Numbered from the stretch's first letter, positions 29,789-47,206 are shown. The stretch: 64,000 nt of DNA from an uncultured Candidatus Saccharibacteria bacterium (GCA_964357395.1 CAYHLC010000003.1:14080-78079); one strand, 5' to 3'. The notes: a model not told the origin generated them from the letters alone. Translations and numbers: made by a program.

Positions 29789-29802
29789 ATTTTTTGTTTT
29801 AG

Positions 29803-29841
29803 GACAGTACTAATTGACTGTCGGATAGAATCATATATAAT
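29803..29841 (+). promoter_or_regulatory. promoter TTGACT-16-TATAAT overlapped by dyad GACAGT-N8-ACTGTC (candidate autoregulatory operator) upstream of first TrmB-like gene
   Basis: agGACAGTactaaTTGACTGTCggatagaatcataTATAATttagag. The inverted repeat spans the -35. Confidence 0.5.
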
Positions 29842-29876
29842 TTAGAGTGAGTGGCAAATACCACCACTTCAGCCAT

Positions 29877-30629
29877 ATGTATAGGGAAGTACTTGAGGAA
29901 ATAGGCCTATCGCCGAACGAGGCCAAGATCTACGAGGCTCTGTTGGAGCGGGGCGTCTCGTCAGTGCCCGCCCTGGCACTCAAGACTGGAGTCGACAAGC
30001 GGAACATCTACGACATCATCCCTAAGATGCTAAAGAAGGGGATCATCTACCAGATAGTCGACCCCAAAGAGCGCCTCTACGCCGCGCTCGAGCCTGCGAA
30101 GTTGAAGGAGCTACTGAGGGAGAAGGAGTCTCGGCTCGACGACATACTGCCTGCGCTCAACAAAAAGTTCCGCAAGAGCACAACAGGGGAGTCGGTATCT
30201 ATATATAAGGGCAAGGAAGGGTTCAAGAACTATTTGCGCGATGTGCTGAAGGCAGGTAAGGACGTGTACTTTGTGGGCGCCAAGGGAGGCTGGTTCGATC
30301 CTGAGTTAGAGACGTTCATCAAGCACTTCCTCCGAGAGGCGAAGAAGAAAGGGATTAAGTACCACCACCTCTTTGACCACGAGATGGGCAGGCAGGCACC
30401 AGAGGTGGTAGCTAAGCTCGGCAAGCCGCACAAGTTCCTGCCCAAAGAGTACTCAACAACAGGGGCGATCGACATCTTTGGCGACCACGTAGTCACCTTT
30501 TCTGGCCTGACACTAAAAAGCGTTACGGAGGACGTGACGTTGGTGGTTATCAAGAACAAGGAGCTCGCCGACTGCTACCGCACTTGGTTCCAGTTCATGT
30601 GGGACCACTGCCCAGAGACAAAAGGTTAG
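29877..30629 (+). CDS. TrmB-family winged-helix transcriptional regulator (paralogue 1)
   Basis: LEEIGLSPNEAKIYEALLERGVSSVPALALKTGVDKRNIYDIIPKMLKKGI is the TrmB N-terminal wHTH. It has a 150-aa C-terminal effector-type domain. The track ORF begins at an upstream GTG. Confidence 0.7.
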   Translation: MYREVLEEIGLSPNEAKIYEALLERGVSSVPALALKTGVDKRNIYDIIPKMLKKGIIYQIVDPKERLYAALEPAKLKELLREKESRLDDILPALNKKFRKSTTGESVSIYKGKEGFKNYLRDVLKAGKDVYFVGAKGGWFDPELETFIKHFLREAKKKGIKYHHLFDHEMGRQAPEVVAKLGKPHKFLPKEYSTTGAIDIFGDHVVTFSGLTLKSVTEDVTLVVIKNKELADCYRTWFQFMWDHCPETKG

Positions 30630-30647
30630 CCCCAAGGGGCGGGATCA

Positions 30648-31253
30648 CTACTTAGACTTGTAGATCTCGTCGATGATGCCGTACTTCTTGGCTTCCTCTG
30701 ATGTCATCCAATAGTCGCGCTCAGCGTCGGAGGTGACTTGGGCCAGCGTCTTCCCAGTATTCTTGGACAGTATCTTGTTTAGTACCTCTTTAGTGCGGAG
30801 TATGTGCTTGGCGGCGATCTCGATATCCGTTGCCTGTCCCTCGACACCACCCATAACCTGGTGGATCATCACTTCGGAGTTTGGGAGTGCGAAGCGCTTG
30901 CCCTTCTTGCCCGCGCTGAGGATGACGGCTGCAGCCGAGGCTGCGATACCGACGGTTACCGTCGCGATGTCCGGCTTTACATAGTTCATGGTGTCGAGGA
31001 TCGCGAGTCCTGCACTCACGGACCCTCCCGGAGAGTTTATGTACAAGTAGATGTCCTTCTTTGGATCGTCAGACTCGAGGAAGAGGAGTTGGGCGATAAC
31101 TAGGTTCGCCACATCATCATGGATAGGCCCGCCAAGGAAGATAATGCGCTCCTTGAGGAGCCGTGAGTAAATGTCGTATGCGCGCTCGCCCATGTTCGAC
31201 TTCTCGATAACCATGGGGACGAGCATGTTGGATCGGTGTTGTTGTGCTGTCAT
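30648..31253 (-). CDS. clpP: ATP-dependent Clp protease proteolytic subunit
   Basis: [18 protein letters not shown] (Ser), MIHQ (His) and the family-wide fold. Start chosen at MTAQQ within track ORF 30648-31301. Confidence 0.9.
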
Positions 31254-31263
31254 GATAGGGGCA

Positions 31264-32085
31264 TTATACCTTTTTAACTTTTTCCGCCAAGCGAGCCCCA
31301 TCGCTCGGCAGCGTACTGTCGACGTAGCGGAAGATCGCCTTGATGGTCTCTGCTATCTTCTTGTCCTCGATGATCATGGCCCACGGGTTTTCCTCCGCAA
31401 AGGACATGATCGCAGTCTTGTTGTCGTAGGCAGCGAGCTCGATATCGAAGTTGAACGCGGGCGGGAGGAACTTGGTGACACGTAGCTGTTCCTTATCGTG
31501 CGTACTCAGCTCTCGTGACTCGGGACTGTCGACGGCGAGTGCCAGCCACTTGATGCCGTGCAGCGGGCGCTTCTCCAAGACATAGTCGATCCAATCCATG
31601 CCCATAAGGTTGTAGACCGCGTGGATGCCAGTAAATCCGTACACCACCTTCTCCTCGTTCTTACGTATCAGATCTTCGTACACCTGCTTGATGCCCTCCG
31701 GACCATCGAAGAACTGGAGGTTCGGCCGGTACCCTCCCTCCTGGCTCCGCATACTTACGAGCGCGGGCACATACTCCGCGACCTTCTTTACATTTTTGTC
31801 TTGTTGCTCCCGTGCTCGCTCGAGGTAGGTAACGAGCATATGCGGCTCAATGGATTGGAAATACAACACACCATTCTTTTCCGACGAGGAGACTAATCCC
31901 TTATCAACAAGTGATTTTAGGAGGCCATAGAGTGTAGTGCGGTTTATACGTAGACGCCGCGCCACCTCGGTCACCCGGAGTCCAGTCTCGTGCGCGAGGA
32001 GGAAGAGGAACGCCTTGGTCTCCCCACTACTAAGCCCCGCCCCAAGGAGGGCACTACTCAGGCCATCTACGATTTTCTTGTCCAT
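31264..32085 (-). CDS. TrmB-family transcriptional regulator (paralogue 2)
   Basis: [45 protein letters not shown] is a wHTH. Divergent from the SBP gene at 32180. Confidence 0.7.
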
Positions 32086-32125
32086 ATGCTTTTGTTGTCG
32101 GGTTACCTCAACAATATATATGCTA

Positions 32126-32155
32126 ATTGACTTTTGTCAATCAAAACATTAGTAT
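32126..32155. promoter_or_regulatory. dyad ATTGAC-tttt-GTCAAT overlapping -35 of TTGACT-17-TAGTAT promoter for SBP gene (shared divergent control region)
   Basis: gctaATTGACttttGTCAATcaaaacatTAGTATttctg. Confidence 0.45.
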
Positions 32156-32179
32156 TTCTGTTAATAATTTATTTTCAAT

Positions 32180-33289
32180 ATGAGTACTAAAACAATCGTA
32201 GGTCTCTTGCTCCTAGGCGTTGTGATTATTGGAGGCGTTTACGTCTTTTCAGCAGAACCAAAGCATGAGGGGCCAATCAAGGTGGGATTTATCGGCCCTC
32301 TCACTGGTGATGTGTCATCAATCGGTACAGTGGCGCGAGCGGCTGTCGAGGTGGCGGTGGACGAGATCAATGCGGCTGGCGGCATCGACGGCAACCAGCT
32401 CGAGATAATCTACGAGGATGGCAAGTGTGACGCTGCCGCGGCCAATAGTGCCGCTAACAAGCTCATTAACATCGACAAGGTGACCGCGATTATTGGAGGC
32501 GCATGTTCCGGCGAGACACTCTCATTCGTGCAGCAGGCGATGGAAAAGAAGGTCGTCACTATTTCCTACTGCTCGTCGGTACCGACGCTAAGCGGTGTGG
32601 GCAAGTACTTCTTCCGTGACTATCCATCTGATGCGTACCAGGGCGTGTTTATGGCGGACTACGCTTATAACAAGCTTGGCGCGCGCAATGTGTCTATCCT
32701 CTATCACATCAATGACGCGCACACTTCACTGAAGGACGTGTTCACAAAGCGATTTACTGAATTAGGAGGAAGGATAGATATCGTGGAGGGTACGCCACAG
32801 GAGGCGCGTGACTACCGCACCCAGCTCACCAAGATGGGCAAGGCAGCTTTCATCTACATGCCGACGTATGCTGATGGAGCGACCGTAGCGTTGACTCAGG
32901 CTCACGAGCTTGGCATCAAGGCAACTATATTTAGTAACGACGCGTGGGGCGACCCAAAGATGCAGGAGGCGGTCGCCGGGCTCGACCGCTACGCATACTC
33001 GGAGGCTAAGACTCCTGAGTTTCCGAATGAGTTTGTGACAAAGGTGCAAGAAAAAGCCGGTACCGACTCAGTCCCTGCGTGTGCGCCACAGGCCTATGAT
33101 GCTACTCATATCCTCGCCGGAGCACTTAGGAATGCTGGCACTAACCCAGACAAGGTCGCAGATGCACTACGTGTCACGAGATACGACGGCGTATCAGGCC
33201 ACATCGAGTTCGATGAAAATGGTGACCTCAAGGGTGCTGCATATGTAGTCAAAATGATACAAAACGGCACTGCGACTGAGGTTAAATAA
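32180..33289 (+). CDS. ABC transporter substrate-binding protein, LivJ/LivK (type I PBP, branched-chain amino acid/amide) family, signal-anchored (paralogue 1)
   Basis: N-terminal TM then PIKVGFIGPLTGDVSSIGTVARAAVEVAVDEINAAGGIDGNQLEIIYEDGKCD, the canonical Leu/Ile/Val-binding-protein N-lobe. No lipobox Cys. 369 aa. Confidence 0.85.
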   Translation: MSTKTIVGLLLLGVVIIGGVYVFSAEPKHEGPIKVGFIGPLTGDVSSIGTVARAAVEVAVDEINAAGGIDGNQLEIIYEDGKCDAAAANSAANKLINIDKVTAIIGGACSGETLSFVQQAMEKKVVTISYCSSVPTLSGVGKYFFRDYPSDAYQGVFMADYAYNKLGARNVSILYHINDAHTSLKDVFTKRFTELGGRIDIVEGTPQEARDYRTQLTKMGKAAFIYMPTYADGATVALTQAHELGIKATIFSNDAWGDPKMQEAVAGLDRYAYSEAKTPEFPNEFVTKVQEKAGTDSVPACAPQAYDATHILAGALRNAGTNPDKVADALRVTRYDGVSGHIEFDENGDLKGAAYVVKMIQNGTATEVK

Positions 33290-33290
33290 A

Positions 33291-34070
33291 CTATTTAGTC
33301 AGCACATCGAGGCGCTTGGCCTCCTCCCACGCGAGTGCGAAGATCTGTTTCATTGCCTGCGCAATCTCGGCGCTCTCGATAATGATGCCGAGCTTATCCT
33401 TCCACGAGGCGATCATCACTTTGTTGTCGTAGATCTCAATATCGGGTGTGATGTCGAACTTGTCTTGCGGCACGACCGCAGCGATGCGCGCCTCGTCCTT
33501 GTTGTGCGTCATACGCTCGCGGGTCATGGGCGTATCAGCCACGATGCCGCGTGCCACAATTCCTTTTTTAGCGCGACGTTCGTAGTAGGAGGGGAAGTAG
33601 CTGCCTAGCGCGGCGTGCATCTCTTCGTACCTAGCGTACGCAACTATCTCTTCAGTCGAAGTGAGTGTGTCCTCGTACACCTCCTTCAATCCCTCGATAC
33701 CCTCATAAAACTTTACAGTCGGGCGACTCTCCACTTTGTGTATAGACGTGAGCTGCGGAACAAAGGTCTTCGCTTTTTGCATACTCTCCTCCAGTGCTCG
33801 CATCTTGTTGCTTAGAAGTTGGTGTAGCCTCTCAGGTGACTCGGCTACGTACTCTTGCTTCGGCTCCTTGCCAGAGATACGGACCAGTCCGTCGCTCGAG
33901 AGGCGGTCCAGAATGTCGTACCCCGTAGTGCGATTGATGCCGGCGCGTCTCGAGATCTGCGCGACGGTGCCGCGCCCTATTTCTAGTATCGCCATATACA
34001 CTCCGGCCTCGTTCTTTGAGAGCCCAAAAGAGGTGAGGGTAGCGAGCGTGGCCTCGTCGTTCTTTGACAT
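33291..34070 (-). CDS. TrmB-family transcriptional regulator (paralogue 3)
   Basis: LSKNEAGVYMAILEIGRGTVAQISRRAGINRTTGYDILDRLSSDGLV. Divergent from the SBP gene at 34244. Confidence 0.7.
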   Translation of the reverse strand: MSKNDEATLATLTSFGLSKNEAGVYMAILEIGRGTVAQISRRAGINRTTGYDILDRLSSDGLVRISGKEPKQEYVAESPERLHQLLSNKMRALEESMQKAKTFVPQLTSIHKVESRPTVKFYEGIEGLKEVYEDTLTSTEEIVAYARYEEMHAALGSYFPSYYERRAKKGIVARGIVADTPMTRERMTHNKDEARIAAVVPQDKFDITPDIEIYDNKVMIASWKDKLGIIIESAEIAQAMKQIFALAWEEAKRLDVLTK

Positions 34071-34243
34071 ATCGACAGCTTAATCTATAGTCATAATTGT
34101 GTCAAGTCAATCCCACAAAATCTTTAAATCCTAAAAATAGGTCTTAAAATAAAGCTATAAACATAGCTATTCTGACAACACTACTTGACAATACTGTTAA
34201 TATCGGCTACACTGTCCGTATTGTTATCAAGTTTACATAGAGT

Positions 34244-35377
34244 ATGAACACACAAACAGTAGTTGGAGTAGTCGTAGTGCTCGTCGCCGTCGTCGGTGGG
34301 TATCTACTTTTCTCAAGGCCTGCTCTGCCTGAGGGGCCAGTTAAGATTGGCGTCATTGCCCCACTTACGGGAGACGCTGCCTCATACGGTGAGTCGCTAC
34401 GCGACGTGATGCTGCTCGCAGCAGAGGAGATCAACGCCGCAGGTGGCATCGAGGGCAGGCAGGTGCAGCTCGTCATTGAGGACGGCAAGTGCAACGGCAA
34501 GGATGCTGCAAGCGCCGCGCAGAAGTTGGTTAGTGTTGATAGTGTCGAGGTGGTCATTGGCGGCTTCTGCTCCAGCGAGTCGCTCGCGGCCGAGCCAGTT
34601 ACTACGGCATCCAAGGTGGCACTCTTCTCTGCCGCATCATCGAATCCGGGACTCACCAATGTCTCGCCGTACTTTGCTCGTAACTATCCATCGGACTCGT
34701 CGCAGGGCACCTTCCTTGCTGATATCGCGAGCGATCGTGGGTACAAGAAGGTGGCAGTTATCCAAGAGCAGACAGACTACGCTGCGGGCGTGTTTGGTGC
34801 ATTCAGCACCGAACTAACTGCAAAGGGTGGAGTAGTAGTCAAAGAGGAGTTCCCATCCAAGCACACAGACTTTAGATCACTCATAGCAAAGCTGAAGGCA
34901 GAGAAGCCTGACGCGCTCTTCATCATTGCGCAGACGCAGGCCGCAGAGAAGCTCTTGTTCGCGCAGCTGCAGCAGCAGGCATGGAATACCCCGCTCCTCA
35001 TCAATGACGTTATCGCCGGGGACAAGGAGATGCTCGCCGAGTACGCGCCGTTCCTCGAGGGTGCCCTGACCGCCGAGTTTACTGTCGACCCAACAAACAC
35101 CAAGTATCAGAAGTTCCTCGCAGCTTTTGTAGCGAAGTACAGCAAGGAGCCAACACTGCTTGCCTACGCACAGACCGAGTATGACGCAGTCTATCTAGTG
35201 GCGGACGCTATCCGCGAGGTTGGGTACGATGGCACCAAGATCGCTGCATGGCTCCGTACTGTTAAGGACTGGGATGGCGCGGTAGGCAAGGTGACGATAG
35301 GTGCTAACGGCGACCCGGTTGCCGGCCACCGACCGGAGGTGATTCGTGGTGGCGTTGCTGCCCCTTATAGCAGGTAG
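34244..35377 (+). CDS. LivJ-type substrate-binding protein, signal-anchored (paralogue 2)
   Basis: PVKIGVIAPLTGDAASYGESLRDVMLLAAEEINAAGGIEGRQVQLVIEDGKCNG. 377 aa. Confidence 0.85.
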   Translation: MNTQTVVGVVVVLVAVVGGYLLFSRPALPEGPVKIGVIAPLTGDAASYGESLRDVMLLAAEEINAAGGIEGRQVQLVIEDGKCNGKDAASAAQKLVSVDSVEVVIGGFCSSESLAAEPVTTASKVALFSAASSNPGLTNVSPYFARNYPSDSSQGTFLADIASDRGYKKVAVIQEQTDYAAGVFGAFSTELTAKGGVVVKEEFPSKHTDFRSLIAKLKAEKPDALFIIAQTQAAEKLLFAQLQQQAWNTPLLINDVIAGDKEMLAEYAPFLEGALTAEFTVDPTNTKYQKFLAAFVAKYSKEPTLLAYAQTEYDAVYLVADAIREVGYDGTKIAAWLRTVKDWDGAVGKVTIGANGDPVAGHRPEVIRGGVAAPYSR

Positions 35378-35399
35378 TCAGTGCCTGTATACTCAAGCC

Positions 35400-36572
35400 A
35401 TGAAGTGGGACTTGGGTAAGATATATGCATTCAAGTTTTTTGACGACCTGGTACTTGTATACCCGTTCTACATACTTCTCTTTGTTGAGAGTGGGCTTTC
35501 TGCAACTGAGGTTTCCTCTCTGCTCATTGCCTGGTCAGTAGTAACGTTCGTACTTGAGATCCCGTCGGGTGTGTTGGCCGATCGAGTCCCGCGCAAGTAT
35601 GTACTTATCGCTGGCCAACTTGCACGCGCCCTGAGCTTTGGTATCTGGATCTTTTGGCCGACATTTACCGGATTCCTGATCGGCGTTGTTCTTTGGGGGG
35701 TTAAGAGTGCCTGTACTTCAGGGACATTCCAGGCGCTCGTCTACGATCTCTTGAAGTCGGATAATGAGGAGGCATCATATGCGAAGGTGATTGGTCGTGC
35801 TCGTACTGCTTCCTACATCGGAGTGCTTGTTGCTGCTGGGCTTGCGTCGGTCGCCATCGCATACGGGTACACCTTTGTGCTGGTTGCAAGCGCAGCCGCA
35901 GTCGCACTCTCGGCACTCTCGATCGCTCTTGTGTCCGCAGCCCCTGCGTTTCAGTCAACACATGAAAAGGATTATGTATCAATCGCGACGGCGGGCTTCT
36001 GCTTTCTCTATACTCGCCAGGCGCTTCTGCTCCTCATACTTTTTATGGCTCTGTTTCATGCGCAGTATTTGGGGATCGAAGAGTTTTTCCCGATACTGAT
36101 GACGCTCGATGGTGCCACAAAGTCCACTATTGCACTCATGGGCATTGCGTTTGGTGTTGCACAGGCTCTGGCAAGTTTGCTGGCGCACCGGTTTGAGCGT
36201 TTCGCTACCTTCGGGATCGGACTGTTCATGGTGCTCGAGGGAGCGTTTTATGTGGGGGCGTACTATCTCGCTGGCATACCAAGCTTCGCTGCGCTGGTTA
36301 TTGCGTCTGCGATGCACACCATCTTCTTTACGCTCTACGATGCTCGCGTGCAGCACACGCTCGATTCCGGGACGAGAGCGACCGTCTCATCTGTACAGGG
36401 TCTCCTGACCGAAGGGTCAGCCGTACTCTTTTATATAGTGTTCGGGCTTGGAGCAGGGGCACTGGGGTACAGCGAGGCTTTCTTTTGGTTCAGCCTTTGG
36501 GTTTTTGGGTTAGGGTTCCTGTACCTGGCCTCGCAGATGTTCTGGCGGAAAGAAGTCTCGTATACTAAGTAG
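35400..36572 (+). CDS. major facilitator superfamily transporter
   Basis: About 12 predicted TM helices with an MFS-like loop (GVLADRVPRKYVL). Start at MKWDLGK inside track ORF 35346-36572. Confidence 0.7.
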   Translation: MKWDLGKIYAFKFFDDLVLVYPFYILLFVESGLSATEVSSLLIAWSVVTFVLEIPSGVLADRVPRKYVLIAGQLARALSFGIWIFWPTFTGFLIGVVLWGVKSACTSGTFQALVYDLLKSDNEEASYAKVIGRARTASYIGVLVAAGLASVAIAYGYTFVLVASAAAVALSALSIALVSAAPAFQSTHEKDYVSIATAGFCFLYTRQALLLLILFMALFHAQYLGIEEFFPILMTLDGATKSTIALMGIAFGVAQALASLLAHRFERFATFGIGLFMVLEGAFYVGAYYLAGIPSFAALVIASAMHTIFFTLYDARVQHTLDSGTRATVSSVQGLLTEGSAVLFYIVFGLGAGALGYSEAFFWFSLWVFGLGFLYLASQMFWRKEVSYTK

Positions 36573-37445
36573 GTGTTCGACATAGTTCCGCAGCTCATAG
36601 CAAACTCGGTGATCGCGGGGTCTATCTACGCCCTGGTGGCGATGAGCTTCTCCCTCATCTATGGCGCGACCAAGTTCTTCAACCTCGCGCACGGCGTACT
36701 CGCTGCTATCGGCGGCTACACCGTCTTCTATTTGGGGCGTAAGCTCGGCCTCCCGCTCGAGGTGGTGCTGCCTGCCGGTATCATCCTTGCCGCATTCGTC
36801 GGCTGGGCGCTCGAGTACTTCCTCTACCGGCCACTACGTGCGCGCAAGGCATCATCGATGGTGCTCCTTGTTGCGTCGCTCGGCGCCTTTACTGCTATCC
36901 AGGCGGTCATCGCTATACTCTTTACCTCACAATTCCAGACGCTCGGCGCGCTCATCCCGAACTCGGGCGTGGTGCACATCGGCGAGGCAGTAATGACCGA
37001 GGTGCAGGTAGTCATACTCGCGCTGTCGGTCGCGATACTCGTGGGGCTCATGCTCGCACTCAAGTTCACCAAGTTTGGCCGCGCGGTCCGCGCAGTCTCT
37101 GATGACGAGGAGGTAGCCAAGATCGTAGGCATCAACACCAGTCGGATAGTCGGGTGGGTATTCGTTGTCGGCTCGGCTATTGCTGGCGCTGCAGGCATCC
37201 TTGTTGGGTTCGATACCGGTCTCGAGCCAACCATGGGCCTCGCGCTACTCCTGAAGGGCGTTATCGCCGCTATCGTTGGCGGCGTCGGCTCTATCTCAGG
37301 CGCATTCCTCGGCGCATTCCTCCTCGGCTTTGCAGAGAACTTTGGTATCTGGCACATCAGCGGCGAGTGGAAGGACGCCATCGCCTTCGGCATACTCATC
37401 CTCTTCCTCCTCTTCCGCCCGCAAGGGATATTGGGCAGAAAGTAG
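36573..37445 (+). CDS. livH: branched-chain amino acid ABC transporter permease LivH-type
   Basis: IAGSIYALVAMSFSLIYGATKFFNLAHG matches the LivH N-terminal signature. 290 aa. Confidence 0.9.
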   Translation: MFDIVPQLIANSVIAGSIYALVAMSFSLIYGATKFFNLAHGVLAAIGGYTVFYLGRKLGLPLEVVLPAGIILAAFVGWALEYFLYRPLRARKASSMVLLVASLGAFTAIQAVIAILFTSQFQTLGALIPNSGVVHIGEAVMTEVQVVILALSVAILVGLMLALKFTKFGRAVRAVSDDEEVAKIVGINTSRIVGWVFVVGSAIAGAAGILVGFDTGLEPTMGLALLLKGVIAAIVGGVGSISGAFLGAFLLGFAENFGIWHISGEWKDAIAFGILILFLLFRPQGILGRK

Positions 37446-37490
37446 AAGTGGCTTGACGGCCGGAGGAGGGTCGATTATAATGGGATTAGT

Positions 37491-37718: not shown

Positions 37719-37719
37719 C

Positions 37720-38106: not shown

Positions 38107-38110
38107 GGCT

Positions 38111-38977: not shown

Positions 38978-39753
38978 TCGTCTTTGACGATCAGGGTAGA
39001 GGACTTCCACACCATCTCGAACTGGGCACGGAGGAAGTCGGTGAAGTCGCGACTACGGATCACAAACCCATACGCCTCGCGCTTGGATGAGATGAACGCG
39101 GCAGTGTTACCTGCCAACCAGTAGCCCATGGGGAGTGTACCCAGCTCCTTTGGAGCCATACGCACCTCGCGTATCGAGTCTGGCCCATCGAGGCGATTAT
39201 ACTTCTTGTTCAACTCATCCAGCTTGTCAGTGTAGGCCCATATGCCTCGGGCCTGCACCTTGTTCCGCACGCGTTTCTCATTAATCTCGTTCATCTCCTC
39301 GCTCCCCAAGAGTCCAACGACATCCTCGATAGACCAAAAAACGATACTTTCGCTCTCTCCCGAGTACACAATCTGGTTCAGTGCCTGACGCACGCCCTCT
39401 TTGCCTGAGTAGAACTTGAACTTGGGGTCAATGGACTCGACGTTGGTCATGAGAGATGGCAGCGCTGCTGCAACCTTGGCACGTTCCTCCGCCAGTGCAG
39501 CAACCTTATCGTCCAAGAGGCGAGTTATCTGCTGTGGATCGTCCACTTGGTACAGGTTCTTCGCCTCATGGAACTGCTCTATTACTAGACCCTTGTTTAT
39601 CAGGGCCTTCAGGTAGTCATAGGTAGTAGGGCGGTTGATGCCCAGGCGCTCGGCCAACTGCTTGGCGGACGAGGCCCCATGCTCAAGAAGAGAGGTATAC
39701 ACCGCCAAGTGGTTGTCATTAAGGCCCAGTTCCGCGAAGGCTTTCTGAAGCAT
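38974..39753 (-). CDS. TrmB-family transcriptional regulator (paralogue 4)
   Basis: LGLNDNHLAVYTSLLEHGASSAKQLAERLGINRPTTYDYLKALINKGLV. Divergent from the SBP gene at 39834. Confidence 0.7.
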   Translation of the reverse strand: MLQKAFAELGLNDNHLAVYTSLLEHGASSAKQLAERLGINRPTTYDYLKALINKGLVIEQFHEAKNLYQVDDPQQITRLLDDKVAALAEERAKVAAALPSLMTNVESIDPKFKFYSGKEGVRQALNQIVYSGESESIVFWSIEDVVGLLGSEEMNEINEKRVRNKVQARGIWAYTDKLDELNKKYNRLDGPDSIREVRMAPKELGTLPMGYWLAGNTAAFISSKREAYGFVIRSRDFTDFLRAQFEMVWKSSTLIVKDD

Positions 39754-39777
39754 GGCTCTAAGTATAGCTCATAAGTT

Positions 39778-39791
39778 GTCGAAGTATCGAC
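39778..39791. promoter_or_regulatory. dyad GTCGA-agta-TCGAC in TrmB4/SBP3 divergent region
   Basis: Perfect 5-bp arms with a 4-nt spacer. A -10-like TACAAT lies about 16 nt downstream. Confidence 0.35.
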
Positions 39792-39833
39792 GATAGAATG
39801 ACAATACAATGATACAGGTGTAAAGTCAAGCAT

Positions 39834-40967
39834 ATGAAAAGCACATATGTACTTGGCGCCCTAGGCCTACTTCTGGTTGTAGGAGCCTTGCTTATAGGAG
39901 ATAAGGTGGGGACCGTAGCTGGAGTGGCTACAGGCGAGCCGATTAAGGTTGGAGTCTCGACCATCCTCACTGGCGACTTTGCCGCACTCGGCGAGAACAT
40001 AGTTAACACTGCAGAGCTTGCAGTCGATGAGGTGAACGCAAATGGTGGTATCAATGGCCGCCCGCTCGAGCTCTACGTGCAGGACGCGGGCCTCGATAGC
40101 AAGACAGGGCTCTCGGCCGCGCAGAAGTTGGTGAACGTGGACGGCGTCCACTACATCATTGGCGGCACGTCGAGCAACGGCACACTTGCAGCTGCACCAC
40201 TCGTCAACGAGAAGAAAGTGATCTACATGACCCCCGTTACTGGCGGCAAGAATGTTGATGAGGCAGGTGAGTATGTGTTCCGTGTAGCGAACGGCGACAT
40301 GCTCGCTGGTCGCGACCTAGCAAACGCAGCAATGGAACTAGGATTCAAGAAGGTGGCACTCGTGACTGAGGTAACTGAATACACGATCGATATACAAAAG
40401 AGCTTCGCGGCTACCTACAAGGGAGAGTTGGCAGTCAACGAGGAGTTCCAGCCTGGCACTACCGACTTCCGCGCACTCGTTGCAAAGACTAAGGCGGCCA
40501 CACCCGACGTTATTGTTGTTCTGTCGCAAACAGGAATCGCAGGCGCGCACTTTATCAAGCAGTCTCAGGATGCTGGTCTCGGCGTTCCAGTCTTTACCGA
40601 CTTTACCTTTGTTGCGAACACCGCAGCGCGCGACATTGTAGGCTCGTTTGAGGGAGTGTACTTTACTGACCCTGCGTTCGCTGCTGACGGCGCCGCAACC
40701 AAAGAAATGTTTGCGCGCTACGAGGAGCGCTTTGGTAGCCAGCCGTTTATTGGCTTCCACGCTGCATCGACCTATGACTCAGTCATGATGCTCGCGGATG
40801 CGCTCCGTGAGGTCGGCGACGATAGCGAGGCGGTACACGACTGGCTGCTAGGCGTGGAGGATCGCAAAGGGCTTATGGGCACCTTCTCTCTCGATGCGAA
40901 TGGAAACTCTGATCTCGGCTTTATCTTCAAGCAGGTCAGAGACGGAAAGTTTGTTACAGTGGAGTAG
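39834..40967 (+). CDS. LivJ-type substrate-binding protein, signal-anchored (paralogue 3)
   Basis: PIKVGVSTILTGDFAALGENIVNTAELAVDEVNANGGINGRPLELYVQD. 377 aa. Confidence 0.85.
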   Translation: MKSTYVLGALGLLLVVGALLIGDKVGTVAGVATGEPIKVGVSTILTGDFAALGENIVNTAELAVDEVNANGGINGRPLELYVQDAGLDSKTGLSAAQKLVNVDGVHYIIGGTSSNGTLAAAPLVNEKKVIYMTPVTGGKNVDEAGEYVFRVANGDMLAGRDLANAAMELGFKKVALVTEVTEYTIDIQKSFAATYKGELAVNEEFQPGTTDFRALVAKTKAATPDVIVVLSQTGIAGAHFIKQSQDAGLGVPVFTDFTFVANTAARDIVGSFEGVYFTDPAFAADGAATKEMFARYEERFGSQPFIGFHAASTYDSVMMLADALREVGDDSEAVHDWLLGVEDRKGLMGTFSLDANGNSDLGFIFKQVRDGKFVTVE

Positions 40968-41704
40968 TGAACAGCGCACTCGAGACCAAGGGATTAGTTA
41001 AGACGTTCGGTGGGGTGCACGCTGTCGACCATCTATCGATACAGATTAAGAAGGGAGACATCACCGGCATCATCGGACCGAACGGCAGCGGCAAGACGAC
41101 ACTGACCAACGTACTTACAGGCGTGTTGCAGACAGATGGCGGAGCAATAGTTGTTGGTGGCGAGGCGGAGCGTGGACGATTGCGGAGCTACCAAGTCCGC
41201 GATCTAGGAATCACTCGCACATTCCAAAACGTAAGGCTCTTCGAGCAGGTGCCAGTCATTGATAACGTCCTGGTCGCGCTCACCAAGCGCACCGTCCTAG
41301 GCTCCTTGTTCCAAACCCACACCAAGTTCCACGAGGAGCGTGCGAAGGAGGTGCTGGAGCGAGTCGGATTGTGGGACAAAAGAAATGCGTTAGCAAAGGA
41401 GTTGTCGTACGGGCAGCGGAAGTTGTTGGAGATCGCACGCGCGCTCGCAACGGATGCGGATATCATACTGTTCGACGAACCGTTCGCTGGGCTATTCCCA
41501 GAGATGGTTAAGACGGTGAGTGGGATACTCAAGGAATTACGCGCAGGCGATAAGACAGTGATACTCATCGAGCACGATATGGCGCTCATACGCGAGCTCT
41601 GCGATCGAGTCATTGTGCTGGAGGCCGGCAAGCTCCTTGCCGAGGGCAAGCCGGAAGAAGTGCTGAAAGATCCAAAGGTTATCGAAGCCTACCTCGGCGC
41701 CTAG
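40967..41704 (+). CDS. livG: branched-chain amino acid ABC transporter ATP-binding protein LivG-type
   Basis: LETKGLVKTFGGVHAVDHLSIQIKKGDITGIIGPNGSGKTT Walker A. LSYGQRKLLEIARAL signature. 245 aa. Confidence 0.9.
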   Translation: MNSALETKGLVKTFGGVHAVDHLSIQIKKGDITGIIGPNGSGKTTLTNVLTGVLQTDGGAIVVGGEAERGRLRSYQVRDLGITRTFQNVRLFEQVPVIDNVLVALTKRTVLGSLFQTHTKFHEERAKEVLERVGLWDKRNALAKELSYGQRKLLEIARALATDADIILFDEPFAGLFPEMVKTVSGILKELRAGDKTVILIEHDMALIRELCDRVIVLEAGKLLAEGKPEEVLKDPKVIEAYLGA

Positions 41705-41729
41705 ACACCGTCGACCCGCGTGGTACTTT

Positions 41730-42851
41730 GTGGGCATGAATAAACTCTGGTGGACAGTTGGTGCCGTCGTCGTTATCGGACTCGCGTGGTGGGGCTACTC
41801 GGCAACGCAAACAATACCAGCAGAGACTGGACCCATTAAGATTGGGCTGATCTCGCCGATGACTGGCGAGGCAGCAACATTTGGTGACGCGTGGGCGGGA
41901 GGCGCAGAGCTCGCGGTTAAGGAGATAAACGCAGCGGGTGGCATCGACGGACGCCAGCTCGAGCTGGTGACCGAAGACGACCGCTGTGTTGCGCAGACCG
42001 GGCCATCTATCTTTAGCAAACTTATTGATATCGATAAGGTGGTGGCGATTGTTGGTCCACTCTGTTCTACATCGGCTGGCGCAGGTCTTCCGATTGCTGA
42101 AGAGGGTAGGATTCCAACCATCATTGGAGCGTCTGCTCCATCCTTGACGCACGATCGAGCTTTTGTGTTCCGCAACTATCCATCAGACTCTTCGCAGGCA
42201 ATCTATGCTGCGCACTATCTCAATGAGACGCTAGGCAAGAAGTCCGTTGCAGTCGTGTACGTCAATAACGATTGGGGTATCGAACTCAATCGAGTGTTTG
42301 TTGATGAGTTTAAAAAGCTCGGTGGTGAGATTCTGGTTGATGAGGGGACTCCTCAAGATGTAACCGATATGCGAACAGTGATAGCCAAGGTTCGGGGCTC
42401 TGTGCCGGATGCGGTGTATCTCGCGCTCTACCCACAAGGCGGAGTTGTTGCACTGAAAGCCATACGCCAGGTTGATCTGAATGTCCCGCTCATCGGAACT
42501 GATCTCTTTAGCACTGGCGAGATCTTTGATGTTGCTGATGCGGAGGGAGTACTCTTTACCATCCCGAACACGAATGCACGTGACGAGTTTGTCGGTCGAG
42601 TTAAGAGCGAGACAGGTAGAGAGGGTAACGAGGTGTCGGGCTTTGCGTATGATGCGGTCAGGATCCTTGCTGCGGCATTTGCCGAGGTAGGTACTGAGGC
42701 AGAAGCAGTGAGGGCATACCTAGAGGACCTGAACTTTACTGACTCGGTAGCACTCCCATCTGTCACATTTGACGCTGAGGGCGACCTTGAGTCCGACGCT
42801 TCGTGGACAATGCGGGTAGTCAAGGACGGTGCTCCGGTTGACGTACAATAG
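41730..42851 (+). CDS. LivJ-type substrate-binding protein, signal-anchored (paralogue 4)
   Basis: PIKIGLISPMTGEAATFGDAWAGGAELAVKEINAAGGIDGRQLELVTEDDRC. 373 aa. Confidence 0.85.
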   Translation: MGMNKLWWTVGAVVVIGLAWWGYSATQTIPAETGPIKIGLISPMTGEAATFGDAWAGGAELAVKEINAAGGIDGRQLELVTEDDRCVAQTGPSIFSKLIDIDKVVAIVGPLCSTSAGAGLPIAEEGRIPTIIGASAPSLTHDRAFVFRNYPSDSSQAIYAAHYLNETLGKKSVAVVYVNNDWGIELNRVFVDEFKKLGGEILVDEGTPQDVTDMRTVIAKVRGSVPDAVYLALYPQGGVVALKAIRQVDLNVPLIGTDLFSTGEIFDVADAEGVLFTIPNTNARDEFVGRVKSETGREGNEVSGFAYDAVRILAAAFAEVGTEAEAVRAYLEDLNFTDSVALPSVTFDAEGDLESDASWTMRVVKDGAPVDVQ

Positions 42852-43587
42852 GTACGTGACTACTGAAACACTGCTGGAACTGAAGGACGTATGGGTGCAA
42901 TACGGTGGGGTGCACGCGCTCACCAGCGTTGATATCAAGCTCGACGAGGGCGAGGTGGTGGCGCTTATGGGACCGAACGGAGCGGGCAAGTCGACAGTAC
43001 TGAAGGCAATATTTGGATTGGCGCCCGTGCACTCGGGCACAACCTTGTGGCAAGGACAGGCATACACGCCGGTCAGCCACGAGGTGGTGGCGCGCGGAGT
43101 CAGCTTCGTCCCGCAAGGCCGACGCGTGTTTACAGATTTAACAGTGGAGGAGAACCTGGAGGTCGGCGGCTACACCAATACGAACGTAGCGCTCACCAAG
43201 GAGCGCATCAAAGATTTGTTCGACTTGTTCCCGGCGCTCAAAGCTAAGAGGCGAGCGAAGAGCGGTACGCTATCCGGCGGACAGCAGCAGATGCTCGCGA
43301 TCGCGCGCGGGATGATGACTGATCCAAAAGTACTACTCCTCGACGAGCCTTCCTTGGGTCTCGCACCAAAGGTGGTCAAGGAGGTGTTCGAGTTTATCAA
43401 GGAGATAAATGAGAAGCTGAAGATCGCCGTCATGGTGGTGGAGCACAACATCAAGTCCCTACTCGATATTGCAAGCAGAGGCTACATATTAGACAAAGGC
43501 AGGGTGGTCGTCAGTGGCTCCCCGCACGAGCTCATCTCCAAAGGCACGCTGGAAAAGGTATTCACCGGCCAGACACTCCATGGCTAA
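42829..43587 (+). CDS. livF: branched-chain amino acid ABC transporter ATP-binding protein LivF-type
   Basis: LELKDVWVQYGGVHALTSVDIKLDEGEVVALMGPNGAGKST. LSGGQQQMLAIARGMM. 252 aa. Confidence 0.9.
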   Translation: MLRLTYNRYVTTETLLELKDVWVQYGGVHALTSVDIKLDEGEVVALMGPNGAGKSTVLKAIFGLAPVHSGTTLWQGQAYTPVSHEVVARGVSFVPQGRRVFTDLTVEENLEVGGYTNTNVALTKERIKDLFDLFPALKAKRRAKSGTLSGGQQQMLAIARGMMTDPKVLLLDEPSLGLAPKVVKEVFEFIKEINEKLKIAVMVVEHNIKSLLDIASRGYILDKGRVVVSGSPHELISKGTLEKVFTGQTLHG

Positions 43588-44071
43588 CTATCATATCGGG
43601 GGACTGTCAGGAACGGGGAAGACGACTTTGTGCAAGGAGTTTGAGCGGCGTGGATACTGCGCTATCGAGGCTGATGAGCACTTGGCAGCGTTCATAGATC
43701 CAGCTACTGGAGAGGAAACAACTGATAAGTCGACACTTAACTGGATGTGGGTCAAAAGTAAGGTTGAAGAGCTACTTGGTGGCGCGTCAGACCAGCCTAC
43801 ATTTGTGTGTGGCGGGTCGATGAACCAGCTCGATTTCAAGCACCATTTCAAAAAGATGTTTACGCTGTACCTCGATGATGAGACACTGCGCCACAGGATC
43901 ATGACGCGTACCAACAATGATGCGGGCAAGGACCCAGCGGGACTTGCGCTACAACTCGAGTGGAACAAGGGCACGTTCGAGTACGCCAAGGAGAAGGGCA
44001 CCATCCTCATCGACGCGTCTCAGCCGATTGGAGCTGTAGCTGATGAAATCCTAAAGCACGCCGAGGAGTAG
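43580..44071 (+). CDS. small P-loop NTPase / predicted kinase
   Basis: Walker A GGLSGTGKTT near the N-terminus. Start at MANYH inside track ORF 43514-44071, which overlaps the livF stop by 8 nt. Confidence 0.5.
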   Translation: MANYHIGGLSGTGKTTLCKEFERRGYCAIEADEHLAAFIDPATGEETTDKSTLNWMWVKSKVEELLGGASDQPTFVCGGSMNQLDFKHHFKKMFTLYLDDETLRHRIMTRTNNDAGKDPAGLALQLEWNKGTFEYAKEKGTILIDASQPIGAVADEILKHAEE

Positions 44072-44082
44072 TCTTTCAGAAA

Positions 44083-45159
44083 CTATTTAGCATCCACGAA
44101 CTTGCCATCGACAAACTGGTGGAGCACGACCTGCGCGCTGCGCGTGCCAGCAGCGTTGAAGGATACATCGGCCGAGGCGCCTGCGATGGAGTAGTCATCA
44201 TTTAGCTCCGCCACCCACTCTGACTTATCGATACTCGCAAGGTCGGCAATGATAGCAACTGCATCATACGCATAGTCGGCAGTGAGGAATGGGTCAGCGT
44301 TGAACTTCGCCTTGAACCTACTCACGAAGTCGCCAGTCATGGTGTTTGGAAGCGTAGTCGAGATGCAGTCATCGAAGATCTCTGCGCCCACCTCGTCGAT
44401 GTACTGCTGGATAGAGAACTCGAGATTACCATCGCAAATCACTTGGACGCTTCCTGATGCGTCGAGGCGCTGCAGCTCCTTCAGATACTTAACCCCATCC
44501 TCCAAGGGGAGGAAGACGGTTGCAGCGTCGGGCTTTGCCGCCACAAGCTTCGCGACCTCGGTACGGAAGTCGGAGTCGGGTGCGAGCGCGACAGTGATAG
44601 TCTCCGCCTTGTCACCGACACCCTTCACAAAGTCATCGTGCCACTTCTGCCACAGCGACCCGCCGGCGCCATACACAACTGCTATCTTTTTGTATCGCTT
44701 CGCAGCCTCCTCGCCAAGCTTTGGTGCGATGAGGTCGCTCGCAGGCATGAGCTGGAACACGGTGTCGCTTTCGTGGAACAACGACTCGCCGAGCGTGAGC
44801 ATCAGCATCTGATCTTTAGCAACAACCGGGCGCAGTACCTCGATGACAGGTGCGCTAACGGTCACCACTGCGTCGACATTGTCTACACTCTTTAGCTTTT
44901 GATACGCGGTGAGTCCTGTCTTGGCCTCGTACTTGTCATCCTCGAATATCAGCCGCACCTCTTGCCCTTCGCCGAGCAAGTCCTCGGCAGCAAGCTGCAT
45001 GGCGTTCCTCTCTGACTCACCAAGGAAGGCGTACTGCCCCGAGAGTGGAGCGATAACGCCAATAGTAATAGGCCCAGCCGTAGCAGGGGAGTTAGTAAGT
45101 GCGTACACGCCGAGTGCGAGAGCCGCGAGGAGCGCCGCACCTATTGTTAGGTTCTTCAT
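44083..45159 (-). CDS. LivJ-type substrate-binding protein, signal-anchored (paralogue 5)
   Basis: MKNLTIGAALLAALALGVYAL...PITIGVIAPLSGQYAFLGESERNAMQLAAEDL. The 75 upstream codons of track ORF 44083-45384 are R/C-rich and are not taken as coding. Confidence 0.8.
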   Translation of the reverse strand: MKNLTIGAALLAALALGVYALTNSPATAGPITIGVIAPLSGQYAFLGESERNAMQLAAEDLLGEGQEVRLIFEDDKYEAKTGLTAYQKLKSVDNVDAVVTVSAPVIEVLRPVVAKDQMLMLTLGESLFHESDTVFQLMPASDLIAPKLGEEAAKRYKKIAVVYGAGGSLWQKWHDDFVKGVGDKAETITVALAPDSDFRTEVAKLVAAKPDAATVFLPLEDGVKYLKELQRLDASGSVQVICDGNLEFSIQQYIDEVGAEIFDDCISTTLPNTMTGDFVSRFKAKFNADPFLTADYAYDAVAIIADLASIDKSEWVAELNDDYSIAGASADVSFNAAGTRSAQVVLHQFVDGKFVDAK

Positions 45160-45241
45160 CTCACAACTGTACGCGCGCAGGCCACAACGAGCACCAAATT
45201 CCACCCATCGCCACCCCGCCGCTACACTGAGCCACACCCTC

Positions 45242-45276
45242 CGGATACAATGTCGCAAAACGCGACATTGTATCCG
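45242..45276. promoter_or_regulatory. perfect 15-bp inverted repeat CGGATACAATGTCGC-aaaac-GCGACATTGTATCCG in SBP5/regulator divergent region
   Basis: Read directly. This is the largest palindrome in the window. Confidence 0.5.
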
Positions 45277-45326
45277 CTCTAGCGTATTGTTAGGGGTATG
45301 GCGATAAGGGGCTGCCAGGCAGAGGT

Positions 45327-46139
45327 ATGAAAGATGTAACCAAGCGAGCGCGGGTATTGGGGCTCTCGGAGCTCGAGTCGGCACTCATCGACACACTGAC
45401 TACCGAGCCGGTGGGCATTGCGCGATTGGCACGCGCACTCGGCCGGACGCACACCTCGCTCTATCGACCCTTGCAGGCACTGAAGCGCCGAGGGCTTGCG
45501 GAGGACAAGCTCTACTCGAACGGCACAAGGTGGTGGAAGGTGCCACAGGAGTCACTCGTCGCATCGCTCGGCTCGGTACTATTCAGCGGCATCGCATCAA
45601 ACGCAGCAAATGCGGGAGGTAAGGCGCTGCACCCCGAGTTCTTCCTCCACAGCGGTCGCGACGCGCTCGTTAAGATCTATTTTGATATTGCAGAGCAGAA
45701 GAACATTCGATTTGCTGGAATCCAGCCTAACAAGTCGATCGCTGCGGTGCTGGATGCGGTAACCCCAGAGGAGATACTCCACGTAAACACCAAGATAAGA
45801 GAAAACGGGATTATTGTTGAGGCGATACTGCAGGAAGATGTTGTTGCGTTTTATGCAGCGGAATTAAAGCGCCGTCGCTGGCCCGCAGATAAGATACTCA
45901 GCTCGTTCGGTGGTCGAGCTGCAGACACAACGTATGTGCCGAAGGAGTACATCAACTTCAGTTCCGAGATCCTCTTCCTCCCCAAGGTCGCTTACATACT
46001 GGACTGGGCCAACCTAACAGGTATCGAAATGCGTAGCGTAGAGGCGGTGGGCCTTATCCGCGACCTCTTTGCCCTCGCAAAAACGTTTGGCGCTAAGGTC
46101 GACCAAAACAAACTCATTCGGGAACGCCTCGCTACTTAA
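45327..46139 (+). CDS. winged-helix (TrmB/MarR-like) transcriptional regulator (paralogue 5, divergent)
   Basis: LGLSELESALIDTLTTEPVGIARLARALGRTHTSLYRPLQALKRRGL is a wHTH, followed by a C-terminal domain about 170 aa long. Confidence 0.55.
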   Translation: MKDVTKRARVLGLSELESALIDTLTTEPVGIARLARALGRTHTSLYRPLQALKRRGLAEDKLYSNGTRWWKVPQESLVASLGSVLFSGIASNAANAGGKALHPEFFLHSGRDALVKIYFDIAEQKNIRFAGIQPNKSIAAVLDAVTPEEILHVNTKIRENGIIVEAILQEDVVAFYAAELKRRRWPADKILSSFGGRAADTTYVPKEYINFSSEILFLPKVAYILDWANLTGIEMRSVEAVGLIRDLFALAKTFGAKVDQNKLIRERLAT

Positions 46140-46899
46140 TCTCCTCCCACAGGTTCTTAAACAATTTGCGCATGTTGTCGGCATACACAGCGTCGTGAAG
46201 TTCAATGAGGTAGTGGGGCTTCTGCTTCGACATGATCATAATCGAGTAGTCGCCCACGATCCATTGTGTTTCGGTAAAGTCGAATCCCTTTTTCCAAAAC
46301 TTAATACTCCGGTTCGCGTACTGGTCTGCGGTCATCTTGGTCTCTATCTCCGAGTCGTTGGACAGCAGGTACAGCTTCGTTTCTGGATAGGACTTCCAAT
46401 ACCACTGTATCCATTTGCCAAACACTGCATGCTCAATGAGCGAGTGGTCCTGAAACCCATACCAGTCGGGATTGCCCCCCTTCTCTGACTCGCGCCATAC
46501 ATGCACACGCTCGTAGAGGAACTCCTCTACTTTGGCCTCATGCTCGACAAAGCGGATCTTAGGAATAGCATACGTCTTCGATTGCGGCAGTGACTCCAAG
46601 CCCTTAGCTATCTCCTGCAAGGCCAGCTCTTTGTTGATAAGTGCTTGCCGCTCCTTCCGTGCGACCTTAACTAACTCCTTGGGTGGGGTAGGGTAGTAGT
46701 AAGTCACGCCCTTAAGGGTGTCCTCTTGCACAAAGCCCTTGCTGAGGAGCTCTTTGCATACCGCGTATACGGTAGTCCTGTTCATGCCCGTTTCCGCACT
46801 AAGGCGGACGGGCGTTACCTTGCCGGCACTAATGACAGCGCTGTAGATGGTGCGTTGGTTGTCGCTGAGGCCAAGGACCAAGAGCTCATCGTCAAACAT
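46132..46899 (-). CDS. TrmB-family transcriptional regulator (paralogue 6)
   Basis: LGLSDNQRTIYSAVISAGKVTPVRLSAETGMNRTTVYAVCKELLSKGFV. Confidence 0.65.
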   Translation of the reverse strand: MFDDELLVLGLSDNQRTIYSAVISAGKVTPVRLSAETGMNRTTVYAVCKELLSKGFVQEDTLKGVTYYYPTPPKELVKVARKERQALINKELALQEIAKGLESLPQSKTYAIPKIRFVEHEAKVEEFLYERVHVWRESEKGGNPDWYGFQDHSLIEHAVFGKWIQWYWKSYPETKLYLLSNDSEIETKMTADQYANRSIKFWKKGFDFTETQWIVGDYSIMIMSKQKPHYLIELHDAVYADNMRKLFKNLWEEIK

Positions 46900-47084
46900 G
46901 CACCAAGTCTATCCGAGTTCACCCTATGTTGTCAAGCACAACACAACACAATAATACGTTGATGCATATGACTATTTTTGCAGAATTTGGCTTAAATTCG
47001 TGTCCAATATGACAATCATAACTAAAAATGTCAAACTATACTCATCACGGAAGCATGCACCGTGATTAGCAACTAAAAATAACT

Positions 47085-47195: not shown

Positions 47196-47206
47196 TCAAA
47201 AAATAT

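Follow-up and report, generated by a model that had tools for sequence, protein, structure and literature searches.

Tandem head-to-head TrmB-family regulator and receptor genes around a single Liv-type importer in a groundwater Patescibacteria genome

In the archaea Thermococcus litoralis and Pyrococcus furiosus, the winged helix-turn-helix (wHTH) regulator TrmB is encoded beside the trehalose/maltose ATP-binding cassette (ABC) transporter that it controls. Here we analyzed a 64 kb stretch of contig CAYHLC010000003.1 (the window; positions are counted from its start), in which six genes for TrmB-family regulators (reg1 to reg6) and five genes for LivJ-type receptors (SBP1 to SBP5) surround the genes of one LivHMGF importer, and four of the receptor genes stand head-to-head with a regulator gene of their own. 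The uptake locus is chromosomal and placed between tig and clpP. One protein of the region has an identical counterpart on a contig that came from the 0.1 µm filter fraction of groundwater well H41 at Hainich (listed at NCBI as 'Patescibacteria group bacterium'), and almost all related loci come from metagenome-assembled genomes (MAGs) of Patescibacteria. The host is a groundwater Patescibacteria MAG of the candidate phyla radiation (CPR), which fits the streamlined, monoderm-like organism proposed in an initial annotation of the window.

Like the archaeal TrmB system, the locus combines TrmB-family wHTH regulators with a binding-protein-dependent importer, and the DNA-recognition tyrosine is conserved. 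It differs in its bacterial host, in its HAAT/Liv-type importer and in having several cassettes rather than one regulator. The regulators lack the C-terminal subdomain that holds six of the seven sugar-contact residues of TrmB, and the candidate operators are unlike the TACT-N3-AGTA type of TrmB. In length, domain build and absence of a sugar-binding part, the regulators resemble TrmBL2 (PF0496/TK0471), a chromatin protein of archaea that acts as a global repressor. TrmBL2 shows little sequence preference in coating DNA (PMC4158304); the locus has six divergent paralogues, each with a conserved, specific element on its own promoter.

Several binding proteins per translocator are found in Escherichia coli, where LivJ and LivK, members of the same HAAT families, serve LivHMGF. 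The E. coli Liv system is under the control of Lrp. By comparison, the present locus has five receptors where E. coli has two, and they carry a hydrophobic anchor at the N-terminus rather than being periplasmic or lipoproteins. Four of them have a divergent regulator each, and an opposed regulator gene divides the permease and ATPase genes between two units. The pneumococcal Ami-AliA/AliB system is another multi-receptor ABC importer (PMC11139975). With divergent local regulator/transporter pairs of the LysR, GntR and MarR types the locus shares the head-to-head layout, a short control region common to both genes and an operator placed over the promoter of the regulator itself; the regulator family is another one, the unit is repeated in tandem around one translocator, and the phylum, Patescibacteria, is one for which literature searches turned up no described regulators. 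A full-text literature search for TrmB together with Patescibacteria, the candidate phyla radiation or Parcubacteria found nothing, nor did a broader search on CPR Liv systems. The parts are known, namely a HAAT importer, shared translocators and divergent, autoregulated TrmB-family local regulators; what appears new is the tandem repetition of regulator-receptor cassettes, the presence of TrmBL2-type regulators in this lineage and a phylum-wide reg3 group with a fixed operator. The layout is real and recurrent, and seems to be a variant of a known design that has not been described before.

Regulators and receptors

All regulator, receptor and translocator genes of the window fall inside the region. 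Hidden Markov models (HMMs) built from the six regulators and five receptors detected no further copies of either in the 64 kb, and each translocator part is present once. The initial annotation had listed one LivHMGF importer with a transporter of the MFS type and five LivJ-type receptors at 32180, 34244, 39834, 41730 and 44083 (complement strand). Pfam searches bore this out, with two BPD_transp_2 permeases, two ABC ATPases and five PF13458 receptors (110–209 bits), the composition of a HAAT-family importer. As also proposed, all five receptors have a hydrophobic stretch at residues 6–22 and no lipobox, there being no cysteine before residue 83, which is the first cysteine of SBP1. The start of the fifth receptor was corrected from GTG 45384 to ATG 45159, from which its N-terminus aligns with those of the other four. 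For the importer, 'amino-acid-type' is a family label. None of the receptors, which are 21–35% identical to SBP1, reaches the cut-off of the NCBIfam LivJ-type model (100–146 bits, cut-off 477). The best solved relatives of SBP2 are the branched-chain amino acid binders 3td9 and 4gnr (E 2e-33). Those of SBP5 are 4ey3 and 4evq, aromatic-acid binders of R. palustris, and in the receptor alignment SBP3 and SBP5 diverge from motifs common to SBP1, SBP2 and SBP4.

Six TrmB-family regulators had been proposed. Five of them (reg1, reg2, reg3, reg4 and reg6) scored 42–55 bits against PF01978 (cut-off 25.6). The sixth, reg5, fell below the cut-off and was joined to the family by a profile-profile match: its homologues carry PF01978, and its family aligns with the reg3 family over the full length (hhalign probability 98%, E 1e-13, 245 columns). 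A structure model was made for reg3 alone (AlphaFold, mean pLDDT 92), and the other five regulators were tied to reg3 by alignment. The best fold match of the model in the PDB was to TrmBL2 chains over the full length (263–272 columns, E 5e-14 to 8e-13), and its C-terminal domain also matched PLD3, F13 and PLD-type nucleases. TrmB itself (3qph) was matched by the reg3 profile only up to residue 149 (query 7-157, chain 6-149). A single tyrosine is invariant in all six paralogues; in reg3 this is Y51, which aligns to about residue 50 of TrmB, and Y50 of P. furiosus TrmB is the DNA-recognition residue (PMC4158304).

The sugar-binding site lies in a C-terminal stretch of 70 residues that is missing from TrmBL2 (PMC4158304). 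The corresponding subdomain, PF11495 (N305, G320, M321, V324, I325, E326), had no match at E <= 0.01 in the six regulators, which are 255–273 aa long, and the NCBIfam equivalogs for TrmB and TrmBL1 reached 20–33 bits against cut-offs of 500–650, covering the N-terminal part only. The HKD catalytic motif HxK(x)4D occurs in none of the six, and an enzyme role of the PLD-like domain was rejected on this ground. The six regulators are TrmB-family proteins of the TrmBL2 build, with a wHTH, a long helix and a non-catalytic PLD-like domain in about 260 aa. The initial annotation had read the locus as a plug-in sensor/receptor architecture; the pairing with receptors stands, and since the regulators have the TrmBL2 build without the sugar-binding subdomain of TrmB, the 'sensor' half is unproven.

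Related loci were collected in two samples, one anchored on reg3 (80 loci, L002–L081) and one anchored on receptors (80 metagenome loci with 118 evaluable receptors). The regulators of the window are 13–23% identical to reg1, and their DNA-binding part is better conserved among paralogues (27% mean identity) than the C-terminal domain (18%). Because paralogues share only 13–32% identity and orthologues 65–67%, the duplications must be old; recent amplification was rejected, since paralogues among both regulators and receptors are only 13–35% identical. A search with reg3 returned 1862 homologues, the top ones 55–70% identical, which form a highly conserved orthologue group found across Patescibacteria, and the family comprises 5014 clusters at E <= 1e-10 in a representative-library search (counts without taxonomy). 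Orthologues of reg2 were found in L005, L104 and L002 (48–67% identical) and of reg4 in L168 and L171 (67–68%). We rejected the regulators as dedicated clpP regulators, a reg3-type gene being directly upstream of clpP in only 3–4 of the 80 loci; clpP of the window has a separate promoter match, located within the end of reg2.

Intergenic elements and promoters

The promoter scan returned 26 matches where 11 were expected, and weak hexamer matches are ordinary in such scans. It found back-to-back promoter matches in each shared regulator/receptor region and recovered both promoters that had been named before, TTGACT-17-TAGTAT and TTGACT-16-TATAAT. Five dyads had been listed, four in these regions and one at reg1. 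All are present as written, and their significance was assessed with shuffles of each intergenic region. The 15-bp palindrome between SBP5 and reg5 was reached in 0 of 1000 shuffles and is the only one of the five beyond chance on its own; the best inverted repeats of the four other intergenic regions were matched or beaten in 35–77% of shuffles. Conservation was seen for the palindrome and for GTCGA-N4-TCGAC, and sequence comparison placed the conserved elements elsewhere than in the other three dyads.

Each regulator group carries a conserved element of its own. For reg5 this is the palindrome, whose core is kept as AAACAATGTCGC-aaaat-GCGACATTGTTT in L082 and as TTGTCGC-aaaac-GCGACAA in L086, and L084 has a related dyad. 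A repeated or mobile element was rejected, the window having a single copy of the palindrome. For reg3, a consensus AATTTTGTGGAA-N6-ATTGACACAAAT was built from the upstream regions of 75 of the 80 orthologues. It contains the dyad TTGTG-N12-CACAA, the right half of which is the -35 hexamer, followed by the -10 and, 6–8 nt later, the ATG. Position weight matrix (PWM) scans found a single reg3-type site in the window and 79 in 1.24 Mb of related loci, among them only two extra sites, both just upstream of a second TrmB-like gene. A role of this operator as a site shared with receptors or nearby genes was rejected, the scans placing reg3 sites solely at regulator promoters.

The reg4 element recurs in L168 and L171 as GTCGTCGAyAnyyCGACAACT, with unchanged spacing to the ATG and, in L171, a perfect dyad; GTCGA-N4-TCGAC (39778-39791) is part of this TCGACAAC-type repeat and at chance level by itself. 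Upstream of the reg4 orthologues of L169 and L170 we found GTTGT-N10-ACAAC. At the position equivalent to the candidate reg2 operator, TATTGTTGA-N7/8-CCGACAAC is kept in L005, L104 and L002. Relatives of reg6 with 39–45% identity (L014, L048, L062 and L041) have TGTTG(AC)-N4-12-(GT)CAACA upstream. The dyad formerly assigned to reg1 (29803-29822) is at chance level in shuffles and absent from the one comparator, a 44% orthologue in L081, which shares instead AGTGAGTGGC..CCAC downstream of the -10. Likewise, the ACTTGACAATAC...GTATTGTTATCAAGT dyad around the SBP2 -10 has perfect arms of just 7 bp and is reached by 35% of shuffles. Neither L005 nor L007 retains it in this form, and L005 has a different 10-bp inverted repeat at the equivalent place. 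A paralogue-specific, conserved element on the core promoter of each group is the signature of autoregulation.

Many starts look leaderless in these sequences. The -10 hexamer ends 5–9 nt before the start codon of reg1 (GTG 29847; the call in the public contig is the alternative ATG 29877), reg3, reg4, SBP3, reg6, clpP and the antitoxin gene, and 5 of 18 promoter-like matches upstream of genes in the window end at this distance. In most of the approximately 75 reg3 orthologue promoters, TTGACA begins 31–40 nt before the ATG.

Pairing in related genomes and its explanation

The four head-to-head pairs first annotated (reg2/SBP1, reg3/SBP2, reg4/SBP3 and reg5/SBP5) were all found. Of the 30 full-length receptors in the reg3-anchored loci, 25 have a TrmB-like gene as head-to-head partner. 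Tandem cassettes (2–5) occur in at least 12 other contigs, comprising seven reg3-anchored and five of the 80 receptor-anchored loci, and one locus (L022) holds five pairs, with seven receptors and six regulators. In L168 and L171, as in the window, the reg4 orthologue converges on LivM and diverges from a receptor gene. LivG comes directly after this receptor in L171, again as in the window, and in L168 the ATPase genes are separated from it by a second receptor cassette. L082, a sister contig from the same well, shares LivF, SBP5 (69% identical), reg5, reg6, tig and NusA in order. There, at 8976-10214, the reg6 orthologue (48%) faces a 375-aa Peripla_BP_6 receptor not in the window, which suggests that cassettes are gained and lost between close relatives. 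Over 29 pairs, regulator and receptor similarity co-vary (Mantel r 0.49, 0 of 2000 permutations; without reg3 orthologues r 0.54, 1 of 2000), and within the window the rank orders of the two similarities agree.

With moderate confidence, we read the locus as a set of cassettes, derived from old duplication, in which the regulators regulate themselves and most likely also set the paired receptor units. Bound as a dimer to a dyad or repeat specific to its paralogue group, at the -35, the spacer or the -10/+1 of its own core promoter, each regulator would repress itself and limit its own synthesis. The receptor promoter lies back-to-back within the shared 80–170 bp, and from this geometry the same bound protein most likely also sets transcription of the receptor unit. 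In reg4/SBP3 and reg2/SBP1 (80–94 bp regions), the -35 hexamers are 2–7 bp apart, so that a bound regulator must also affect the receptor promoter, by repression or activation; in reg3/SBP2 and reg5/SBP5, the elements are 70–80 bp from the receptor start regions, and the coupling would be weaker. The translocator halves are divided between two of these units, SBP2-MFS-LivH-(toxin pair)-LivM beside reg3 and SBP3-LivG-SBP4-LivF beside reg4; the opposed reg4 gene splits the transporter in this way, and a working importer would need both. The array would have arisen by ancient duplication of regulator-receptor units, followed by gain and loss of cassettes.

A number of observations weigh against this interpretation. 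In the receptor-anchored sample, a TrmB-like gene is present in only 14 of 80 loci, just 20 of 118 receptors have such a head-to-head partner, and receptor arrays of up to eleven occur without a regulator. The Mantel signal partly reflects shared ancestry of orthologous pairs and does not separate co-duplication from conserved synteny. As divergent neighbour of the reg3 orthologue, 13 loci have a radical SAM gene, 12 a receptor gene and seven the gene of a Cys-rich protein lacking a Pfam match; other loci have assorted small genes. Some orthologues of reg4 and reg5, too, are opposite genes other than Liv receptors, namely a radical SAM gene, an NMT1-type ABC importer or an unknown gene. Within the window, SBP4, reg1 and reg6 are unpaired. 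Moreover, some 70 bp separate the reg3 operator from the SBP2 -35, reg3-type sites occur at regulator promoters only, and the regulators are without the sole ligand-binding subdomain known in the family.

The arrays without a regulator indicate that several receptors per translocator are common and that the regulator-paired form is a recurrent subset. Long co-directional Peripla_BP_6 arrays around a single Liv set, with no TrmB-like gene nearby, were noted in L089, L098, L103 (11), L105, L111, L139 and L149. Among the neighbours of reg3 orthologues, the radical SAM protein is about 415 aa and the Cys-rich protein about 560 aa long, and small membrane-like proteins occur in several loci; the orthologue is almost always divergent from its neighbour, with a gap of about 150–200 bp. 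Two further loci carry reg4 orthologues, 71–72% identical. The L170 orthologue (3877-5774) faces an NMT1-type binding protein with its ABC importer and that of L169 (3822-5774) a 385-aa protein without Pfam match, which suggests that the same type of regulator serves other uptake genes. The regulators are not a receptor-specific device; they stand divergently beside genes of various kinds, many of them for uptake.

Alternatively, the regulators might only autoregulate, or act on distant targets, receptor adjacency being the result of joint duplication and inheritance in compact genomes and the receptor promoters being constitutive or otherwise controlled. Such an explanation agrees with the location of every conserved element on the regulator's own core promoter, with the absence of strong reg3-type sites elsewhere in the 1.24 Mb of flanks and with the many unrelated genes that orthologous regulators face. 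By inspection, SBP2-type promoters also seem to carry an element of their own that differs from the reg3 operator, TTGAC-N9-TTGACAAT, seen before receptor genes in L005, L046, L057, L066 and L070. However, a protein bound between the closely spaced promoters of reg2/SBP1 and reg4/SBP3 could hardly ignore the partner, the orientation is almost always head-to-head, and the similarities of regulators and receptors co-vary; we consider autoregulation alone unlikely, if still a serious contender.

If the partner is affected, the effect could be positive. Regulators of dual function would act as repressors at their own promoter and as activators at the neighbouring receptor promoter, bound just upstream of the -35 of the latter, as in divergent LysR-type pairs, and members of the TrmB family can repress, activate or do both (PMC4158304). 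The reg4 element stops 3 bp short of the SBP3 -35, on its upstream side, in a promoter of weak hexamers (ATGACA/TAAAGT, 9/12) whose -10 ends 7 nt before the SBP3 ATG, and the reg2 element is upstream of the -35 of SBP1, also a 9/12 promoter. Yet the distance of the reg3 and reg5 elements from the partner start regions does not suit activation, and weak hexamers are what the scan ordinarily returns, so that a dual function seems rather improbable to us. We give very little credence to a third explanation, in which the regulators act like archaeal TrmBL2 as abundant, largely sequence-nonspecific, chromatin-type proteins and the dyads are incidental. TrmBL2 is the best full-length structural match, and the reg3 group is unusually conserved for a local regulator; but six divergent paralogues in 17 kb, paralogue-specific elements fixed in promoter position across genomes and the perfect palindrome of reg5 all speak against it.

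Extending the autoregulated cassettes that we favor, one may speculate that an expanded family of TrmBL2-like proteins provides the main local transcription factors of Patescibacteria, with the PLD-like domain as a hitherto unrecognised small-molecule sensor, the cassettes as independently switched plug-in receptors for one translocator and the reg3 group as a phylum-wide, leaderless, autoregulated master copy with a fixed 22-bp operator. We regard this extension as possible but distinctly tentative. If true, the permease and ATPase halves of one translocator would themselves be under two different family members.

Gene order and significance

The features of the region are listed in Table 1. 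Besides the regulators, receptors and importer first annotated there, the region contains clpP, an antitoxin/Doc pair and an AAA_18 gene. The designation as an 'island' found no support in base composition: GC is 0.51–0.57 over region and flanks with no step at the borders. A foreign island by composition was rejected, and as a Liv cluster already lies between tig and clpP in the relative L006, local expansion is indicated rather than an obvious insertion. RNA-based control was also rejected; Rfam (gathering thresholds) found four tRNAs only in the window and none in the region.

Table 1. Features of the region and their positions in the window
Feature	Position	Strand	Description
reg1 promoter	29814-29841	+	TTGACT-16-TATAAT; promoter scan
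reg1	29847-30629	+	TrmB-type, PF01978 49 bits; no receptor partner
clpP	30648-31253	-	Pfam; 10 bp downstream of reg2, same strand
reg2	31264-32085	-	TrmB-type, PF01978 42 bits; head-to-head with SBP1
Candidate reg2 operator	32092-32114	.	TTGTTG-N11-CAACAA; between reg2 -10 and ATG; best inverted repeat of its region
ATTGAC-tttt-GTCAAT dyad	32126-32141	.	two facing -35 hexamers of the reg2 and SBP1 promoters; chance level as dyad
SBP1 promoter	32127-32155	+	TTGACT-17-TAGTAT; promoter scan, 9/12 hexamer match
reg2 promoter	32140-32113	-	TTGACA-16-TATATT; promoter scan
SBP1	32180-33289	+	Peripla_BP_6 receptor, PF13458 163 bits; N-terminal hydrophobic anchor
reg3	33291-34070	-	TrmBL2-like, PF01978 above cut-off; head-to-head with SBP2
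Candidate reg3 autoregulatory operator	34097-34118	-	TTGTG-N12-CACAA; overlaps -35 (TTGACA) of reg3's own promoter
SBP2 promoter	34185-34213 (element 34183-34232)	+	TTGACA-17-TACACT; flanked by imperfect dyad ACTTGACAATAC...GTATTGTTATCAAGT
SBP2	34244-35377	+	PF13458 receptor
Transcription unit 1	34244-38977	+	SBP2, MFS, LivH, antitoxin, Doc toxin, LivM; co-directional, short gaps
MFS transporter	about 35400-36572	+	Pfam
LivH	36573-37445	+	BPD_transp_2, 142 bits
Antitoxin	37491-37718	+	75 aa, AbrB/MazE-like
Doc toxin	37720-38106	+	128 aa, Fic/DOC, PF02661 58.5 bits
LivM	38111-38977	+	BPD_transp_2, 169 bits
reg4	38974-39753	-	TrmB-type, PF01978 53 bits; convergent with LivM, head-to-head with SBP3
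reg4 element	39775-39795	-	TCGATACT/TCGACAAC repeat; on reg4 -35 and spacer; ends 3 bp from SBP3 -35
SBP3	39834-40967	+	PF13458 receptor
Transcription unit 2	39834-44071	+	SBP3, LivG, SBP4, LivF, AAA_18 gene
LivG	40967-41704	+	ABC ATPase with BCA_ABC_TP_C (PF12399)
SBP4	41730-42851	+	PF13458 receptor; no regulator of its own
LivF	42829-43587	+	ABC ATPase
AAA_18 kinase-like gene	43514-44071	+	Pfam
SBP5	44083-45159	-	most divergent receptor, PF13458 110 bits; start ATG 45159
Candidate reg5 operator	45242-45276	.	perfect 15-bp palindrome CGGATACAATGTCGC-aaaac-GCGACATTGTATCCG; between SBP5 and reg5
reg5	45327-46139	+	divergent TrmB-type, PF01978 20.8 bits (below cut-off 25.6); head-to-head with SBP5
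reg6	46132-46899	-	TrmB-type, PF01978 43 bits; no receptor partner in window
reg6 element	46927-46943	.	TGTTG-N7-CAACA; over reg6 -35; promoter TTGACA-18-TAGACT
tig	47442-48563	-	Pfam

Convergent 3' ends touch or overlap at SBP1/reg3 (1-nt gap, 33289-33291), LivM/reg4 (4-nt overlap, 38974-38977) and reg5/reg6 (8-nt overlap, 46132-46139), leaving little or no terminator space between these opposed units. The MFS gene, in the stretch 35346-36572, is an insertion between SBP2 and livH and is not found at the equivalent position in the closest related clusters (L005, L006 and L002). The toxin pair splits livH from livM, which are adjacent in related Liv clusters such as those of L005 and L006. This pair, which is outside the main finding, has the composition of a Phd/Doc-like type II toxin-antitoxin system, a Fic/DOC gene preceded by a small antitoxin gene. 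The antitoxin open reading frame (ORF) ends 1 bp before the toxin start codon, its MazE_antitoxin match is weak (18.8 bits, cut-off 24.7), and the pair has its own near-consensus promoter, TTGACG-17-TATAAT at 37453-37481, ending 9 nt before the antitoxin ATG. The 542 bp before tig (46900-47441) hold short ORFs only and a terminator-like hairpin at 47411-47441. In the flanks, a 248-aa protein with a match to a Kazal-type protease-inhibitor domain (25 bits) is encoded at 48887-49633 (-), between tig and a pyrophosphatase-like gene, and an RNase Y homologue at 27169-28698 (-).

Gene regulation in Patescibacteria is essentially uncharted, and these organisms import most of their building blocks rather than make them. 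The value of the locus lies in its combination and lineage, not in a new mechanism. With its relatives, it offers candidate regulator-operator pairs with small regulator proteins, namely the 15-bp palindrome and the 22-bp element upstream of about 75 of 80 orthologous regulator genes, and it suggests how a very small genome might widen, and control, the uptake of one importer.

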